Assembly: GCA_003647715.1 (NCBI GenBank)
Contig: QMNJ01000003.1
Span: 1-32,438 of the forward strand
Origin: Candidatus Coatesbacteria bacterium
GTDB lineage: Bacteria; RBG-13-66-14; B26-G2
Direction: 5' to 3'
Length of the DNA stretch: 32,438 bases
Position numbers and translations under genes: made by a program
Notes under the pieces: generated by a model
The model's input: only the letters and a program-made list of their open reading frames with translations
The model's database searches: none
What the model was told of the DNA's origin: nothing
Shown: in pieces, positions 3,174 through 29,973 of the stretch
Layout: the number at the start of each line of letters is the position of its first letter
Numbering within the stretch: the first letter of the stretch is position 1

Positions 3174-3692
3174 CTACCTTTCATTTAATTTATTTCTGCC
3201 TTTCTTCCACGACCTCAAATACCTGTATATGACCATCAGAATAGCGGTCACAGGGACTGCGATGATTACGCCGATTACACCGAAGAAATGAGCCCCTACC
3301 ATCACCGCAATTACGACAAGAACGGGATGCAAGCCAACACTCCTCCCTAATATCTTTGGACCGATGACATAGGCATCAAGAACCTGAACGGTGGTGTATA
3401 AAGCACCAACAAGTAATAGCGACCTGATACGATGTTCAGCAAATAATGCAGATACCACCGCAGGAATAATACCTATCACCACTCCCAGGGTGGGTATGAA
3501 GTTCATCAACCCCCCGAAGTAGCCAATCCATAACGCAAAGGGTATGCCTATTAAGTAGAGACCCAGTGCAAGAATACTACCCTCAATAAGGCATATCAGG
3601 AATATACCCCTGATATAACCACTGATAACCCTCAATATGTTACGACCCAGTTCCTTTATATCCCTATTCTTGCTATGCAAATGTCCATTCAT
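3174..3692 (-). CDS. AI-2E family transporter-like protein, short (C-terminal half only)
   Basis: GYIRG, LMNFIPTLG, QVLDAYVIGPKILGRSVGLHP and GVIGVIIAVP are AI-2E motifs. Only 172 aa; SD-like GAGGG upstream of the ATG. Confidence 0.75.
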   Translation of the reverse strand: MNGHLHSKNRDIKELGRNILRVISGYIRGIFLICLIEGSILALGLYLIGIPFALWIGYFGGLMNFIPTLGVVIGIIPAVVSALFAEHRIRSLLLVGALYTTVQVLDAYVIGPKILGRSVGLHPVLVVIAVMVGAHFFGVIGVIIAVPVTAILMVIYRYLRSWKKGRNKLNER

Positions 3693-5816: not shown

Positions 5817-6158
5817 ATGAGGTCTGCGATATTCACAGTTATTCTAATCATAGTAATAACTTTTCTATCCTGCGGTGATACAATTATACCTCCCAACACG
5901 GCAAAGAGAACGGTATATCTTGTGAGCGAGGAGGATATTACTGGCAGGGGCGGTTATATTGATATAGCAGAACTGGCTGGCATCACCGATGTGGATGGAG
6001 AAACCGAGATGCCCTGTATTATGGTTTATGGTGACAGAAGAAAATCAGATAGCTGGTCACCGTTATCACCACAATATTACAAACTTTATGAAGGGCAGAT
6101 ATGGATAGATTCTGAAGGCGGGGACTCGGAGTTTTATAGGATAGTTGTCATCAAGTGA
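5817..6158 (+). CDS. Hypothetical lipoprotein
   Basis: Hydrophobic N-terminus ending in lipobox FLSC (Cys19); SD GGAGG upstream; starts 2 nt after the previous stop. Confidence 0.7.
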   Translation: MRSAIFTVILIIVITFLSCGDTIIPPNTAKRTVYLVSEEDITGRGGYIDIAELAGITDVDGETEMPCIMVYGDRRKSDSWSPLSPQYYKLYEGQIWIDSEGGDSEFYRIVVIK

Positions 6159-6289
6159 TTTTGTTATTGGTTTAGACATTATCTTTATAATAGAATATAA
6201 AAAACTTGATTTGAATTGAATAAGATGGATGATAGTAATTTCTATCAGTGTGTATTATGTTTATATAATACAAATAGGAGGGATTCATT

Positions 6290-9256
6290 ATGTTTGGAAA
6301 GAAAGGGAAGATCTCGCCCGATGAGTTCGCCGACTTCCTTAATCAGTATTTTGTGGACTACTCTAACCTCCTGGAGAAGGGAGAGAACATAAGAAGCACC
6401 CTGGAGAAACAGATTACAAAAGGAAGTGAACTGGAAGAGAAGATAAACCGTCTTGAGAAAAGCGTCGCCGATAGCGAAGCAAGGATAAACTCAACCACCT
6501 CCAATGCAGAAAGCAGAATGAACTTCATCACCAGCAGGATAGACGAGGTATCCACAATTAAAACCGAATTAGAGCAATTGAAGAGAATCGCAGATGAAAT
6601 CAAGAACAAGGTTGATACATCTTTAGAGAAAGACCCGACCGAGAAGATTGAGCGAGCCAACGCCATACTTGACGACCTATCAGCCCGAGCGGTAATCATT
6701 GAAGAGCGTTATAAGGACATTGAAGAGAAGAGCAAGCGTTTTGAGGAAGTTCTGAACAGAGCCGATGACCTTACAGAAAGAGTAAACAATCTAACCCTGA
6801 CGCTTGACAACCTTAATTCCAAGTCGTCCCAGATTGAGAGCAAGACCACCACTTACGAAGATATCATTAAGCGTATCAGTTCGGACATAGAGCGAGTCAA
6901 CCAGGCGGTAGTGAAGACCGATGTCATTGAGGAGCGACTGGACAGCATTCTCAAGGATGTTAACAATGTTAAATCCCTTATTGACGAACTTCAGAGCGAT
7001 GCAAAAGATACCCGGACCTCAATGGACAAGGTGGAGGAAAAATTTGACCAGCTAAATAGAACAGCAGATACACTTCAGACAAGATTCAAGGATGACTTGA
7101 AGGATATTGAAACGAGGGTTTCAAATGCTTCCACAAGCATCTCTGAGCTGGAGAGCAGATTGAGGGACTTTGAGAGCGTAAAAGATGATATAAGCACCTT
7201 AACTAACCGACTGAGCAACATTGAGAACAGCGTGAACGATGCCTTTGATGTATTATCAAGGTTCAAAGAGGTGGAGGATAAATTAAATACTGTTGAGGGC
7301 AAACTGAACACTCTAAAGAATACATCAGATGAACTTACGGGAAAGACCGAGGAGGCGCAGAGGTCAGTGAGCAGTATATCTGAGAACCTCAACATCTATG
7401 GTCAACAGATTGAAACCTTTACTGGGCAGATAAAGGAGATAGAGAACAATATAAAATCAATTGATGAGAAGGTTGACAAATGGGTTCAGGCGAGAGACCT
7501 CTTTGAGGGCGTGGAGGATACTCTCATTGAACTACGGAAGATGAAGGGAGAAGTAGAGGCGTTCTACAACAGCATGCAGGACTACAAGACCATCTTTGAA
7601 AAGGTTCAAGATGAACATAGCCGGCTGAATGTTCAGATATGGGAGATTGAGAAGAAACTGACCGACATAGACGACAAGATTGTTAGCATCAATGAACTTG
7701 AAACGAAGATAAGGATGCTGGAGGAGAAGCGAGAGAAGCTAACAAGTGATATGAAAGTTCTTGAAGTATGGGAGTCCCGCTTAAAGGATGCCAGCAACTA
7801 CTCTGATGAAGTTGATGACCAGATGAAGAAGATTGAGAGAGGAATAAACCAACTAACCTCAAAGATAGAGTTCATTAGCTCTACCTCCGATGACATAACA
7901 CAATTGAAGGAGAAGGTGGATAGCATCATAAAGGAAAGAGATGAACTGCTTTCCACTGGAGACGACCTCAAGTCGCTTAAGAGCGAGATGGATTCAATTA
8001 TCAACAGATTAGAGCAATACACCCACAAGTTCCCCGAACTTGAGATGCAACAGAAGGGACTGGAAGCCAATCTATTTAATATTGAACAGCGTCTTGATGC
8101 GATAGGTCAGGCAGTGATAAGCGAGAGGGAATTTAACGAGAAATACAATGAGATTATGAACAAGCACTCAGAGCTTGCCAATGTCAAATCGCAGATTGAT
8201 GACTTATCCACTAAACTTGAGAATGTGAGGGACTACAGTGCTTTGTATCAGGAGGTTGAGAGCAGGATAAAACAGTTTAGTGCCGAAAAAGCTCATTTTG
8301 AAAAGTCGGTTGCTGACCTCCATTCATCATTTAGAGCCATAGAAGACGACTTCTCAAGAAAGGTGGCCGATTTCAACCGCGAGAAAACCCTGCTTGAAGA
8401 GAAGGAGCGAGATATTAGGTTCATCCGCAACAATGTTGACAACCTCTACAATCGCCTAAACGAGTTATCAGACCTCCGTGCAAAACTTGACAGAGACATA
8501 AACACCTTGAAGGACAAAGAACAAGACATACTCAGAATAAAAAGTGAAGTAGCGGAGATTGAGAAGATGGAGGCGGACACCAGAGCTATGATGGATACTC
8601 TGGTCAAAACCCGTTCAGAGATAAGTGCTTTTGAGAACGAACTTAAAAATATAAGAACCCATCAGGAGCAGGTAGAATCCACATCCAAGCAGATATCCCA
8701 GATGCTTGACGATGAGCATATTAGGATGAATGAGATGGTATCATTGAGGGATAGTTTCATAACCCTAAGAGCGGAAGTAGAGGAGAAACTAAATGAGCTT
8801 AAGGCAGACAGAAAGGTTCTGGAAGACAGCATTGAAAGGTCTAAGAAAGAAGTAAGTGCACTAATCAGGGAACTTGACGAGAAGAAGGACATTCTGGTGA
8901 CATTGAGAGACAGATTTGACTCCATCAACATGATTATGGATGATATCGACTCACGAACTGAGGAATTAAACGCCAACAGGGATGACCTTGAGAAGATGGA
9001 GAAAGAGATCAACCAGTTGACCACCAGGATGAAAGAAATAACCGAAGATGCAAGCAATATCAACCGGATGGAGAAGGATTTACACAGGATTGAGGAGAAG
9101 ATGAATGAATTGGTGGAGTTGAGGTCAAAGATACTCTCCGAATTAGACGAACTGAGAGCCAAAGAGGCAATAATCTCTGATTTGAACCACAGGATATTGA
9201 ACCTTGAGTCAAAGATGAGGTCATACAAATCTGAGTCAAGAGAGACAGAGGAGTAA
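6290..9256 (+). CDS. Large coiled-coil protein (988 aa) with no ATPase head, signal peptide or TM segment
   Basis: Continuous heptad-like pattern rich in E/K/D/L/I; only 3 Pro and no Cys seen; strong SD AGGAGG at 6276-6281; no Walker A, Walker B or SMC hinge. Confidence 0.85.
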   Translation: MFGKKGKISPDEFADFLNQYFVDYSNLLEKGENIRSTLEKQITKGSELEEKINRLEKSVADSEARINSTTSNAESRMNFITSRIDEVSTIKTELEQLKRIADEIKNKVDTSLEKDPTEKIERANAILDDLSARAVIIEERYKDIEEKSKRFEEVLNRADDLTERVNNLTLTLDNLNSKSSQIESKTTTYEDIIKRISSDIERVNQAVVKTDVIEERLDSILKDVNNVKSLIDELQSDAKDTRTSMDKVEEKFDQLNRTADTLQTRFKDDLKDIETRVSNASTSISELESRLRDFESVKDDISTLTNRLSNIENSVNDAFDVLSRFKEVEDKLNTVEGKLNTLKNTSDELTGKTEEAQRSVSSISENLNIYGQQIETFTGQIKEIENNIKSIDEKVDKWVQARDLFEGVEDTLIELRKMKGEVEAFYNSMQDYKTIFEKVQDEHSRLNVQIWEIEKKLTDIDDKIVSINELETKIRMLEEKREKLTSDMKVLEVWESRLKDASNYSDEVDDQMKKIERGINQLTSKIEFISSTSDDITQLKEKVDSIIKERDELLSTGDDLKSLKSEMDSIINRLEQYTHKFPELEMQQKGLEANLFNIEQRLDAIGQAVISEREFNEKYNEIMNKHSELANVKSQIDDLSTKLENVRDYSALYQEVESRIKQFSAEKAHFEKSVADLHSSFRAIEDDFSRKVADFNREKTLLEEKERDIRFIRNNVDNLYNRLNELSDLRAKLDRDINTLKDKEQDILRIKSEVAEIEKMEADTRAMMDTLVKTRSEISAFENELKNIRTHQEQVESTSKQISQMLDDEHIRMNEMVSLRDSFITLRAEVEEKLNELKADRKVLEDSIERSKKEVSALIRELDEKKDILVTLRDRFDSINMIMDDIDSRTEELNANRDDLEKMEKEINQLTTRMKEITEDASNINRMEKDLHRIEEKMNELVELRSKILSELDELRAKEAIISDLNHRILNLESKMRSYKSESRETEE

Positions 9257-9316
9257 TCAACTTCATATATTGTTGAGATACTAATAGTTAATCAACTGCT
9301 TTAGAAGGAAGGTTTA

Positions 9317-10096
9317 ATGGCAAGGGTTATCTCCATTGCCTGTCAGAAGGGTGGAGTAGGAAAGACGACGACTGCTCTAAATCTTGGAATATCCTTGAAT
9401 ATTCTTGGTAAAAAGGTACTACTTATTGACCTTGACCCACAGGGATGTCTTGGGATTGCCTTTGATATGGACCAGGACTCACTATCACGCGGAATATTTG
9501 AGATGGTAGTCAAGACCTGTGAACCAAAGGATGTGATACATAAGACCGGCATAAAATCACTTCATATTATCGCTAACAATGTCTGGTCAAATCCTGCAGG
9601 TGAGGCGATAAAGAAAGCAATGAGCAATCTACGAGTTCTAAAAAAAGCGGTAAATTCTCTGAGATGTGACTATGATTATATTATAATGGATTGTCCCCCT
9701 TCTATATTTGAGAACACCATAGCCGCAATATACTCATCCGACTCCGTCCTTATTCCTGTCCAGAGCGATTACTATGTGTTTATGGTGTTAGACCAGTTTC
9801 TTCAAACAATTTGTACCATAAAGAAAAGCATCAACCGTGACCTTGAAATTGAGGGACTACTACTCACAATGTTTGATAGTCGCCTTAAGTCATCCAGGGA
9901 GATACTTAAACTCTCATGGGAGCGATATGGTTCTCTGGTATTCAAAACAATAATTCCCAGGTCAACGGAGATAGCCCAGGTGATATATTCAAGAAAGCCA
10001 ATAAGTATATATCTCCCCAAACCATCAAGGGGAGCACTTGCATATCTGTCACTGGCAAGAGAACTGATACAGAAGCAACAGAAAGATAGAAGATGA
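9317..10096 (+). CDS. parA: ParA/Soj family ATPase (orphan)
   Basis: Deviant Walker A QKGGVGKTT, LLIDLDPQG, YDYIIMDCPPS, VLIPVQ, TMFDSR and IIPRS; 259 aa with no N-terminal HTH. Confidence 0.9.
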   Translation: MARVISIACQKGGVGKTTTALNLGISLNILGKKVLLIDLDPQGCLGIAFDMDQDSLSRGIFEMVVKTCEPKDVIHKTGIKSLHIIANNVWSNPAGEAIKKAMSNLRVLKKAVNSLRCDYDYIIMDCPPSIFENTIAAIYSSDSVLIPVQSDYYVFMVLDQFLQTICTIKKSINRDLEIEGLLLTMFDSRLKSSREILKLSWERYGSLVFKTIIPRSTEIAQVIYSRKPISIYLPKPSRGALAYLSLARELIQKQQKDRR

Positions 10097-10578
10097 TTGA
10101 GGGCAAAGCCATAATCCTTGGGAACAATATTGATACAGACCAGATATACCCTGGTAAATATCTGCCCATTACAGACCCTGTTGAGATGGCTCCACACGCT
10201 CTGGAGGGTTTAGCAGAGGACTACTCCGAAAAACTTAAAGGTGCAATAATCATAGCGGGTAAGAACTTCGGGTGCGGAAGTTCAAGAGAGCAGGCGGCTA
10301 TATCGCTTAAATATGCAGGTGTAAATGCAATAGTTGCGGAATCGTTTGCCAGAATCTTCTACAGAAATGCTATAAATCAGGGTATACTGCTATGCCAAGT
10401 TGATAAGAAACCAAAAGCTGGTGATGATGATATCATCAGTATAGATATTGATAACTCCGTCATCATCACACCCTCAGAAAAGGTGAACTTTACTCCACTA
10501 CCTCCCTTTCTTCTGGAGATAATCAACAGAGGTGGTCTCATAGAATATACCAGGGCAATACTCACTGAAGATGAATAG
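10093..10578 (+). CDS. leuD: 3-isopropylmalate dehydratase / homoaconitase small subunit (LeuD/HacB/DmdB type)
   Basis: NIDTDQIYPGKYL, GKNFGCGSSREQA and AESFARIFYRNAINQG; ATGA overlap with parA. Confidence 0.85.
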   Translation: MIEGKAIILGNNIDTDQIYPGKYLPITDPVEMAPHALEGLAEDYSEKLKGAIIIAGKNFGCGSSREQAAISLKYAGVNAIVAESFARIFYRNAINQGILLCQVDKKPKAGDDDIISIDIDNSVIITPSEKVNFTPLPPFLLEIINRGGLIEYTRAILTEDE

Positions 10579-28795: not shown

Positions 28796-29255
28796 CCTCC
28801 AGACCTATAATGTGTCTCATATCTAACTCTATTTTCAAAGTATTTCTGAAAAGTCCCTCACCCGCATCCCTCGCAAGATTATCTGCCCTCTTATTACTCT
28901 CCCTCTTAATATATAAAACTTCAATATCTAGACCCTTACTAAGGTCAAAATACCTCTTTACAAGCTCCCTTATTCTATCATTTTTTACCCGATACTCTCC
29001 ATTAATCTGCTTGGACATCAACTCACTATCAGTGTATATCTTTGCCTTTTTTGCACCCATTTGTTTTATTATCTCAACTGCTATCAGGAGAGAAATGTAT
29101 TCTGCCATGTTATTGGTGGTCTCGCCAATACCCGCTGAAAAGACACCAACTTCATTACCATCTCTATCTTCCACCAAAACACCAATCCCTGAGGGACCGG
29201 GATTTCCCTTTGAGGAACCGTCTATATAAATATTCAGTTCTCCTACATCATTCAT
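28785..29255 (-). CDS. rnhA: Ribonuclease HI (archaeal/Gram-positive-like subtype)
   Basis: IYIDGSSKGNPGPSGIG, TNNMAEY, TDSELMSKQING and RESNKRADNLA give all four acidic catalytic residues. Start is probably ATG 29255. Confidence 0.9.
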   Translation of the reverse strand: MNDVGELNIYIDGSSKGNPGPSGIGVLVEDRDGNEVGVFSAGIGETTNNMAEYISLLIAVEIIKQMGAKKAKIYTDSELMSKQINGEYRVKNDRIRELVKRYFDLSKGLDIEVLYIKRESNKRADNLARDAGEGLFRNTLKIELDMRHIIGLEVEK

Positions 29256-29973
29256 CCTTATGCTCCTCATCATCCTTATGATACAAGTAGCATGCACAGT
29301 TAGGACAGCGCTCTACGGTCTCACCTAAGATTACTCTATTAACCAACTGTGGTGGAAGATTGACAAAGCAGTTCTGACACACACCATCTACGACAATAGC
29401 AGTTGCTCTACCCTGGTTATGTTCTCTAGTTCTCTCATATCTGGAAAGTATCATCTTATCTATCCTGCCTGCCAATCTCTCTCTCTCTATCGTTAACTCA
29501 TCAATTGTCTTCTTCAATTCATTCTCACGCTGTTTAGAAAAGTCGCGGAAGGCATTGACATCCCTTCTTTTACTCTCAATAGAACCTTCTAACTTTTTAA
29601 TACTTTCTTCATAGTTATCTATCTCTTCCAGTAGCATTATTACCTCATCCTCAAGAACCGATATATCATTCCTGGTATTATCAATCTCTTTCAAGATAGC
29701 TGTATATTCCTCATTGGTTTTGACCTCAAACAATTGCTTCTGATACTTATTAAGAAGCGATTGTGTTTCTTCAAGATTTCTCTCTTTACGAATCCTCTGC
29801 CTTTTGGTCTCCTCCAACCTTGTTTTAATATCTTCAAGCTCCTCTTGAAGCGTCTTTAACTCGTTAAACTTTTTTGAGATTTGAAGGGGGAGATTTTCTA
29901 ACTCTTTTCTTGCAGTATCTATCCTGGTGTCTACTTCTCCCAGTGATACTATCAAGAAAAGAGTTTCGTTCAT
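29248..29973 (-). CDS. Coiled-coil C4 zinc-ribbon protein (DUF164/CT398-like)
   Basis: Long coiled coil with KTNEEYTAILKEI; C-terminal CQNC...CPNC. Confidence 0.9.
   Translation of the reverse strand: MNETLFLIVSLGEVDTRIDTARKELENLPLQISKKFNELKTLQEELEDIKTRLEETKRQRIRKERNLEETQSLLNKYQKQLFEVKTNEEYTAILKEIDNTRNDISVLEDEVIMLLEEIDNYEESIKKLEGSIESKRRDVNAFRDFSKQRENELKKTIDELTIERERLAGRIDKMILSRYERTREHNQGRATAIVVDGVCQNCFVNLPPQLVNRVILGETVERCPNCACYLYHKDDEEHKDE

Follow-up and report, generated by a model that had tools for sequence, protein, structure and literature searches.

Exploring a stretch of 32,438 nucleotides from a Candidatus Coatesbacteria genome (contig QMNJ01000003.1 of assembly GCA_003647715.1, positions 1 to 32,438, forward strand; the window), we found two co-oriented plus-strand genes, between positions 6290 and 10096, that encode a long coiled-coil protein and an orphan ParA-type ATPase. 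The first gene (6290..9256) is an open reading frame (ORF) that opens with ATG and encodes a 988-amino-acid (aa) acidic, segmented, all-helical coiled-coil protein of a family that we call W-box; below we refer to this protein as the scaffold. The second, parA (9317..10096), also opens with ATG and encodes a protein of 259 aa with a pI of 9.3. The 60-nucleotide (nt) spacer between the two (9257..9316, plus strand) contains the ribosome site of parA, GAAGGAAGG, upstream of the ATG at 9317, and the AT-rich intergenic leader in front of the scaffold gene (6159..6289, plus strand) carries the ribosome site AGGAGG ahead of the ATG at 6290. Downstream, a gene for a LeuD/DmdB-type small subunit (10093..10578, plus strand, 161 aa; TIGR02087 174.9 bits versus a cut-off of 108.95) overlaps the stop of parA by 4 nt. 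A model given the letters alone (the sequence-only reading) had proposed this layout, i.e. a coiled-coil gene 60 nt upstream of a co-oriented ParA, followed by leuD and not by parB, and both the ORF coordinates and the family match agree with it. The LeuD/DmdB-type gene is context only and lies outside the conserved module; the genes downstream of parA vary among relatives. The genome assembly comprises 1.62 Mb in 196 contigs and is 91.7% complete.

The scaffold is a headless coiled coil

The scaffold contains three prolines in 988 residues (positions 10, 116 and 582) and no cysteine, and its pI is 4.82. Its highest 19-residue Kyte-Doolittle mean is 0.51, indicating that the protein has no stretch resembling a transmembrane segment or a signal peptide. 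Hydrophobic residues recur with a strong periodicity of 3.5 residues (power 1.95 versus at most 0.39 at the other periods tried), and AlphaFold2, run on a nine-sequence alignment, placed at low confidence nine helices over residues 10-987, separated by short breaks, and predicted nothing globular. Searches with Pfam models returned generic coiled-coil families only. SMC and Rad50 models matched through their coiled-coil arms only, the SMC model scoring 118 bits against a cut-off of 567; the true SMC of this genome is encoded on contig C122 (838 bits). With scores this far under the cut-offs, a predicted structure made of helices only and neither head halves nor a hinge, we rejected an assignment of the scaffold to SMC, Rad50 or MukB. 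A tandem-repeat protein was likewise ruled out, as self-BLAST at E ≤ 1e-3 found no internal repeats. Composition, hydropathy, scores of hidden Markov models (HMMs) and the helical model thus confirm the earlier description of a headless, nearly proline-free coiled coil with no transmembrane or signal segment. No curated family accounts for the protein, as had also been anticipated.

The top NCBIfam match to the scaffold, as well as to every relative tested, was SpiroCoCo_C (145.8 bits versus a cut-off of 125), while SpiroCoCo_N stayed below its cut-off (66.8 bits versus 75). The N and C models overlap on the scaffold (residues 347-465 and 382-577, respectively), and the stretches that match best in orthologues lie at positions unrelated to one another (24-214, 289-464 and 290-465), i.e. 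the match is not collinear. At E ≤ 1e-5, SpiroCoCo_C matched neither the SMC of the genome nor another coiled-coil protein of the window, which argues that its similarity to the scaffold is more than generic. Judging from these profile matches we did not assign the scaffold to SpiroCoCo, to which it may be distantly related. In our literature search the word 'SpiroCoCo' was found in no paper.

The window ParA is an additional, orphan copy

The window ParA carries Q-K-G-G-V-G-K-T-T at residues 10-18 and exceeds the cut-offs of AAA_31 (159.7 bits versus 27) and CbiA (79.8 versus 25.4); its signature lysine together with these scores places it among the ParA/MinD deviant Walker A ATPases. Across 22 aligned ParAs, Q10-T19, D38, D40, D125 and R189 (in TMFDSR) are invariant, and the window ParA retains P-R at 214-215 (IPRS). 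In Soj, the signature lysine and the Asp and Arg residues serve ATP hydrolysis and non-specific DNA binding. All motifs listed in the sequence-only reading (QKGGVGKTT, GCL, PSIFE, QSDYY, TMFDSR and IPRS) are present, and the aligned parB-linked Soj proteins do carry GNA, PSLGL and QCEYY at the places where the window ParA was said to diverge. Some changes extend over the whole clade of linked ParAs described below: D-P-Q-[GA]-C, with C44 invariant where Soj has N, [SC] ahead of Q-K-G-G where Soj has N, and an added N-x-W-S-N in linked-type ParAs, with N88, W90 and S91 invariant. A C-terminal extension of 10-24 residues was found in 15 of 16 clade rows (the sixteenth, L009, was masked) compared with 3-9 residues in six Soj proteins. 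This extension holds 6-9 lysines and arginines in ten family-f3-type proteins and 3-4 in the window ParA, P0002-P0004, L008 and L018; it is not net basic in P0002-P0004 and L008. The nearest solved structure is 8ray ('ParA family protein', 170 bits), followed by 1wcv/2bek and 6iub.

A second parA lies on contig C105 directly before the only parB of the genome (the only ParB_N match), indicating that the window ParA is a second, orphan copy and not the sole Soj of this organism, a possibility that the sequence-only reading had left standing. The next gene after the window parA is the leuD-like one, and not a parB. On the partition-ParA model NF041546 the protein scored 93.7 bits, short of the cut-off of 180, and on the MinD model TIGR01968 it scored 73.7 or 73.5 bits versus 212.9, so that it does not qualify as a MinD. 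We found no match to the canonical 16-bp parS consensus (up to two mismatches) anywhere in the assembly. The earlier observation that the window lacks parS therefore holds for the canonical site, but given that the entire assembly lacks a match despite its soj-parB locus, the absence from the window is uninformative. Either the parS of this phylum differs or it sits in unassembled sequence.

The pair is conserved across the class

Relatives were collected by searching the large protein against 40 genomes, which yielded weakly similar long ORFs, followed by tblastn with ParA and by a ParA search of the whole phylum. Scaffold gene and parA adjoin each other in the same orientation in 14 of the 15 genomes of the class; in the fifteenth, G013, ParA starts 21 nt from a contig end. 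By tblastn, ParA lies directly downstream of the scaffold at every locus from the order and class of the window. In the 13 relatives' loci that were measured the genes share one strand and are 30-68 nt apart, and the relatives' loci encode scaffolds of 952-1196 aa and ParAs of 260-272 aa. Flanking genes vary between genera, and only scaffold and ParA are shared. Canonical soj is found next to parB in all 15 soj loci examined, contig C105 of the window genome included, whereas the linked ParA is never beside parB; in 14 other genomes of the phylum, a ParA 31-38% identical to that of the window sits beside parB. Together, the data indicate that scaffold and ParA form a conserved two-gene unit, which supports the sequence-only reading. 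Public records of the linked loci bear the submitter labels Candidatus Coatesbacteria, Zixiibacteriota or bacterium. Literature searches on Coatesbacteria returned no title concerning cell organisation, and those on orphan ParA with coiled-coil positioning returned nothing on this pair.

A maximum-likelihood tree of 50 ParAs (IQ-TREE quick search, LG+G4) was built from 13 linked ParAs, 15 parB-linked ones, six other ParAs of the phylum and 16 database proteins taken from the best matches. All 13 linked ParAs fall in one clade with a support of 99 in the Shimodaira-Hasegawa-like approximate likelihood ratio test (SH-aLRT), and the parB-linked Soj proteins fall elsewhere; the comparison with soj-parB that had been suggested thus sets the linked ParA apart. 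The clade comprises 18 rows, i.e. the 13 linked ParAs, four database proteins of unestablished context and one long-branch third ParA of G001, and its position, nested among the Soj-like proteins, agrees with an origin by duplication of Soj. The lineage of the window ParA is long (0.82) and joined to three metagenome proteins 70-72% identical to it; the program's long-branch warning concerns L067 and L008. In the sister class (10 genomes) no orthologue of the linked ParA was found, the best matches being its own Soj proteins (35-39% identity).

Two further ParA loci came up in these searches. In sister-class loci L081-L085 (G015-G018) there is a more distant second ParA, which reads K-G-G-T-G-K-T-T and has no parB next to it. 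The third ParA of G001 (L067, positions 50-2314, contig C14) has D-L-V-T-D-G-G where others have D-L-D-P-Q-G and lies 140 nt downstream of a gene for a very acidic, helical protein of 452 aa; it sits on its long branch within the scaffold-linked clade, and the locus is a candidate for a further pair of ParA and partner.

The scaffold belongs to a large unnamed family

Nine aligned sequences, ~17% identical to the window scaffold, share three conserved blocks. These are the N-terminal tip (6290..6379, plus strand; residues 1-30), a central W-box (7502..7699, plus strand; about residues 405-470) and a second block of the form R-x-R-F-x-x-I-x-M-I-M-D-D-I-D-S-R (8906..8956, plus strand; residues 873-889). 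The W-box, in which L415, L446, W451 and E471 are invariant, is the most conserved block of the family; in the second block the invariant residues are R875, M881, D885 and R889. From such alignments and profiles we place the scaffold in a large unnamed family of ~750-1200-aa proteins found in Gemmatimonadota, Acidobacteriota, Nitrospinota, Fibrobacterota and other taxa.

Patterns derived from the W-box and the R875 block retrieved 29 loci from a collection of species-representative genomes. Ten of these are of the linked type, and the other 19 encode ~750-870-aa box proteins with different N-termini in Nitrospinota, Tectomicrobia, Dadabacteria and metagenome-assembled genomes. Scaffold relatives of the sister class carry the W-box as well. 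When 1.84 billion representatives were searched with the profile, 6071 matched at E ≤ 0.001, many of which are expected to be generic coiled coils. The top two were unrelated giant proteins with many matched stretches; the best matches included dozens of proteins of 870-920 aa whose alignment ran collinearly, as a single stretch, over profile positions ~210-1034. Full-length 1181-aa orthologues were missing from this list, and the library seems not to contain them. Alignment of the ~900-aa proteins revealed a box L-N-A-L-A-E-H-V...L-N-E-L-V-W-x-M-E together with a related C-terminal block and a related tip, and hhalign of the scaffold profile against this family gave a probability of 100% and E 1.8e-43 over 793 columns. 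The scaffold thus shares with them the collinear similarity and the L-N-x-L-x-E...W-[ED]-[MI] box by which we define the family. In their sources (NCBI, JGI) these relatives, from Gemmatimonadota (Longimicrobiales), Nitrospinota and Fibrobacterota, are called 'hypothetical protein' or bear automatic labels. Neighbours in the ESM Atlas formed unnamed clusters, commonest in Gemmatimonadota, Acidobacteriota, Nitrospinota and Eiseniibacteriota; the structure matches of that resource were disregarded (template-modelling scores 0.12-0.21 by query and 0.20-0.51 by matched row). A word-indexed homologue search with the whole 988-aa scaffold found nothing at E ≤ 1e-10, although it was swamped by generic coiled coils and is thus uninformative; the same search with the W-box region of P0131 found just 10 close Gemmatimonadota-type proteins with hypothetical or generic names. 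The Gemmatimonadota-type W-box gene has variable neighbours and looks free-standing.

In three Nitrospinota loci (L049, L050 and L057), genes for W-box proteins of ~760 aa occupy a common neighbourhood, read by eye as pseudouridine synthase, glycosyltransferase, isopropylmalate dehydrogenase, aspartate-semialdehyde dehydrogenase, W-box protein, nucleoside phosphorylase, HemL and enolase. The place roughly corresponds to that of fimV/hubP, a polar landmark gene, in gamma-proteobacteria. A literature search on the fimV/truA/asd/leuB neighbourhood returned nothing relevant.

The N-terminal tip is family-wide and basic in linked proteins

The tip of the window scaffold reads M-F-G-K-K-G-K, after which come S-P-D-E and the first helix; the low-confidence AlphaFold2 model leaves residues 1-9 outside any helix. 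It is the family-wide F-[GS]-[KR] form, here dibasic and net positive. The nine-sequence alignment shows the pattern M-(A-P)-[LI]-F-[GS]-[KR]-K with K5 invariant, and in the Gemmatimonadota-type subfamily 41 of 49 full-length loci have M-A-(A)-W-[KN]-[LIV]-F-G-[RKH]-[DE]...L-P-A-E-L. On comparison of these patterns, the two tips are clearly one element. The charge of the eight residues from F onwards is +1 to +3, and dibasic, in all 11 ParA-linked proteins, compared with -2 to 0 in all 17 distinct tips of unlinked relatives. This contrast fits a tip that has been re-tuned into a basic activating peptide. According to excerpts of PMC7993993, short basic N-terminal peptides of PomX, ParB, SopB and MinE suffice to activate their ParA/MinD ATPases. 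The tip may also be a membrane or self-assembly contact. The proposal of the sequence-only reading that the tip is either an activating peptide or a membrane contact thus gained in one respect, the conservation of the tip, and lost in another, since the motif is family-wide in unlinked members and hence not specific to ParA.

Cell context and expression

MinC (MinC_C) was found in none of the 25 genomes of the phylum, with control genomes behaving as expected, and none of the 25, 16 of which are at least 90% complete, has a MinD at E ≤ 1e-40 or over the cut-off. The window genome has FtsZ, MreB and SMC; a search for CheW gave no match in it.

Contigs from three metatranscriptomic libraries of one study cover positions 6250-9370, i.e. 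the scaffold gene in full, the spacer and 54 nt of parA, so that the spacer is bridged in three runs; a fourth library, from another study, contributed two short pieces. The contigs begin at 6250 and 6323 and end at 9369-9372, with one small contig further inside parA. Given that this place is the P-loop-coding stretch, which is common to many ParA genes and at which assembly graphs branch, we take the stop at 9369-9372 as an assembly artefact and not as a transcript end, and lack of cover past 9372 or upstream of 6250 carries no meaning. DNA carry-over is possible in these libraries, and the contigs are no proof of a single transcript. A weak promoter-like match at 6229-6258 scored 9/12; such sites are no commoner here than in shuffled sequence. 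No terminator-like site was found on the plus strand between 4500 and 11000, and the RNA fold of the spacer is no stabler than that of shuffles (z -0.74).

Other genes of the window

The remaining genes of the window include ilvC, Rex, glycosyltransferases, thiC, an Omp85-domain protein and a SurA-like protein. Its GC content is even, which together with these ordinary chromosomal genes argues that the window is not a plasmid or a mobile island. The LeuD/DmdB-type gene has no adjoining large (aconitase-domain) subunit, and across the assembly the Aconitase family was matched only once, by a 650-aa frame on contig C63. Immediately ahead of the module, an ORF of 113 aa (5817-6158, plus strand) has a lipoprotein-like N-terminus with a hydrophobic stretch ending L-S-C; it matched no family and was not found beside the pair in relatives. 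An ORF of 172 aa (3174-3692, minus strand) matches just positions 177-326 of the 327-position AI-2E transporter profile and may be a truncated or frame-shifted gene or have a mis-called start. At 29248-29973 (minus strand), adjoining Wzz and polysaccharide-export genes, lies the gene of a CT398-like protein with a coiled-coil hairpin and a C4 zinc ribbon and a weak CdsZ-like match.

Discussion

We consider it somewhat probable that the ParA of the module derives from Soj and is dedicated to a scaffold that self-assembles, in a phylum in which neither MinC nor MinD was found. There is good support for the view that ParA and scaffold are a conserved and dedicated pair. The mechanism, i.e. an activating tip, positioning on the nucleoid and a filament, is what we infer beyond this; for nucleoid positioning the evidence consists of the retained Soj-like residues. 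As an acidic, segmented coiled coil of the cytoplasm, the large protein would most likely build a filament or scaffold by self-assembly. The downstream ParA would be a duplicate of the chromosomal Soj that lost its parB neighbour and kept the ATP-binding motifs and the Soj-type arginines; from what is known of the family, a protein that kept these should still dimerise on the nucleoid in an ATP-dependent manner. In this class the scaffold may then have become the client of the orphan ParA, in one of two ways. A ParA gradient could distribute or position the scaffold, with the dibasic tip as ATPase-activating peptide as in PomX, ParB and MinE, or the scaffold could anchor and sequester ParA like the polar landmark proteins. 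The opposite charges of the two proteins (pI 4.82 and 9.3) were counted in favour of a partnership. Since the phylum shows no MinC or MinD, yet FtsZ, MreB and SMC are present, we speculate that the cargo is concerned with division-site or chromosome organisation.

Several observations weigh against this reading. There is no third conserved gene at the locus that hints at a cargo, and all linked genomes belong to one class, so that the linkage arose once and its conservation is in part inheritance. Outside the class, no ParA was found within the flanks of the 19 unlinked loci of the genome collection, neither ParA nor ParB was found in any of 73 Gemmatimonadota-type metagenome loci (flanks up to 4 kb), and in the sister class the ParAs lie on other contigs in all eight genomes with a match. 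A family this widespread without ParA has a core function that needs no dedicated ParA and a tip that predates the linkage; the tip is therefore no ParA-specific invention. The contrast in tip charge compares two clades and no independent events, and some relatives of unestablished gene context also have basic tips. The AlphaFold2 model of the scaffold is of low confidence (mean predicted local distance difference test 56.9, predicted template-modelling score 0.25). Finally, the Min-less state extends to the sister class, in which the linkage is missing, and is therefore not discriminating.

The same observations lend themselves to an account in which adjacency does not imply partnership: the scaffold would do a ParA-independent job like its many relatives in other phyla, for instance as a membrane-associated or self-assembling structural element whose tip makes the membrane or assembly contact, the ParA would serve another client, such as ParB-bound DNA or an unlinked cargo, and the genes would merely be co-transcribed. 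The W-box family is widespread, mostly free-standing and surrounded by variable genes, its tip is family-wide, and the ParA retains all Soj-like features. The hydrophobic-basic tip may also resemble short N-terminal membrane-targeting helices. It is hard to see, however, why in that case the pair would be kept so tightly in 14 of 15 genomes while its surroundings change, why the ParA clade would be confined to genomes with the linked form, the sister class having only Soj-level matches and no orthologue, and why a dibasic tip would occur in linked members only; we judge this account rather unlikely. The Soj-like features would also suit a second segregation ParA that works with the distant ParB and parS beside Soj, the coiled coil being a landmark-type anchor at the pole or membrane like TipN, DivIVA or HubP. 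Indeed, this ParA arises within the Soj radiation and keeps R189 and the ATPase motifs, and there is precedent for landmarks of coiled-coil type that hold ParA (TipN and DivIVA in the excerpts of PMC9178275). Against it stand the altered Soj surface motifs (GNA to GC[AL], PSLGL to PS[IM]..., the added N-x-W-S-N), the partition-model score of 93.7 bits where 180 is called for, and a scaffold with no transmembrane segment or obvious anchor, and we hold this arrangement to be distinctly unlikely. The large protein might also simply be a SpiroCoCo member and nothing new, given that SpiroCoCo_C is over its cut-off, tops the NCBIfam matches in all relatives tested and is silent on SMC. With SpiroCoCo_N under its cut-off, the two models overlapping and the match not collinear in orthologues, this is most improbable; moreover, the family is itself a mere name found in no paper, and the relatives are recorded as hypothetical or generic.

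Among known systems, the ParA-scaffold pair invites comparison with PomXYZ of Myxococcus xanthus, made here by architecture only. Myxococcus is not known to have a Min system, and it is a likeness to it that MinC and MinD were found in none of the 25 genomes of the phylum. Both systems combine an orphan ParA/MinD-type ATPase acting on the nucleoid with a coiled-coil, filament-forming partner, although for the pair described here these properties are inferred. Excerpts of PMC7993993 describe the short, positively charged N-terminal peptide of PomX as necessary and sufficient for ATPase activation. The pair differs in that its locus has no gene for a second activator or adaptor like PomY, the neighbours being unconserved, in that the scaffold is coiled coil nearly end to end whereas PomX has an Ala/Pro-rich N domain and a C-terminal coiled coil, and in that the window ParA is a recent offshoot of Soj.

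Polar landmarks likewise unite a long coiled-coil protein with a Soj-type ParA. Scy interacts with ParA in Streptomyces, and HubP interacts with ParA as well. TipN and DivIVA are further examples in the excerpts of PMC9178275. The ParA partner of such landmarks is the parB-linked one, and their genes do not adjoin it, whereas here a dedicated paralogue lies 60 nt downstream; furthermore, TipN has transmembrane segments and HubP has LysM and transmembrane parts, and the scaffold has no transmembrane segment. With Soj of ParABS, the window ParA has in common the fold family, the length, the signature lysine, the Asp residues and the Arg of T-M-x-D-x-R; it differs by the lack of an adjoining parB, its separate clade, its altered motifs and a C-terminal extension that is basic in most members. 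No other named HMM scores as high on the W-box family as SpiroCoCo (NF047514, NF047515; LA_3659 family), which likewise describes a long, uncharacterised coiled coil; the differences are a match that lacks collinearity and an N-domain model that stays under its cut-off. McdA-McdB also joins an orphan ParA-type ATPase to an activating partner, which can be partly coiled coil according to excerpts of PMC9178275, but McdB is small and sits with carboxysome genes, of which the window has none. By analogy, the pair would work most like PomX-PomZ or a ParA-landmark pair.

A wider proposal, which we regard as rather doubtful, is that W-box proteins are a widespread, undescribed cytoskeletal or scaffold family for which one class, in a phylum lacking Min, captured a duplicated Soj as dedicated motor, with the dibasic tip as activating peptide, giving a nucleoid-guided division or chromosome system independent of PomXYZ. 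ParA/MinD ATPases are the general means by which bacteria place chromosomes, plasmids, division sites and organelles, and each new partner reveals how one motor is re-aimed. The W-box family has no name or known function across several major, mostly uncultivated phyla, and both proteins of the pair are small and soluble-looking enough to be studied in vitro or in Escherichia coli without culturing the host. If the partnership is true, it would provide the first functional handle on this family, its linked and unlinked members would constitute a natural experiment on the evolution of activating peptides, and the pair would be a candidate for the organisation of division in a phylum without MinCD.

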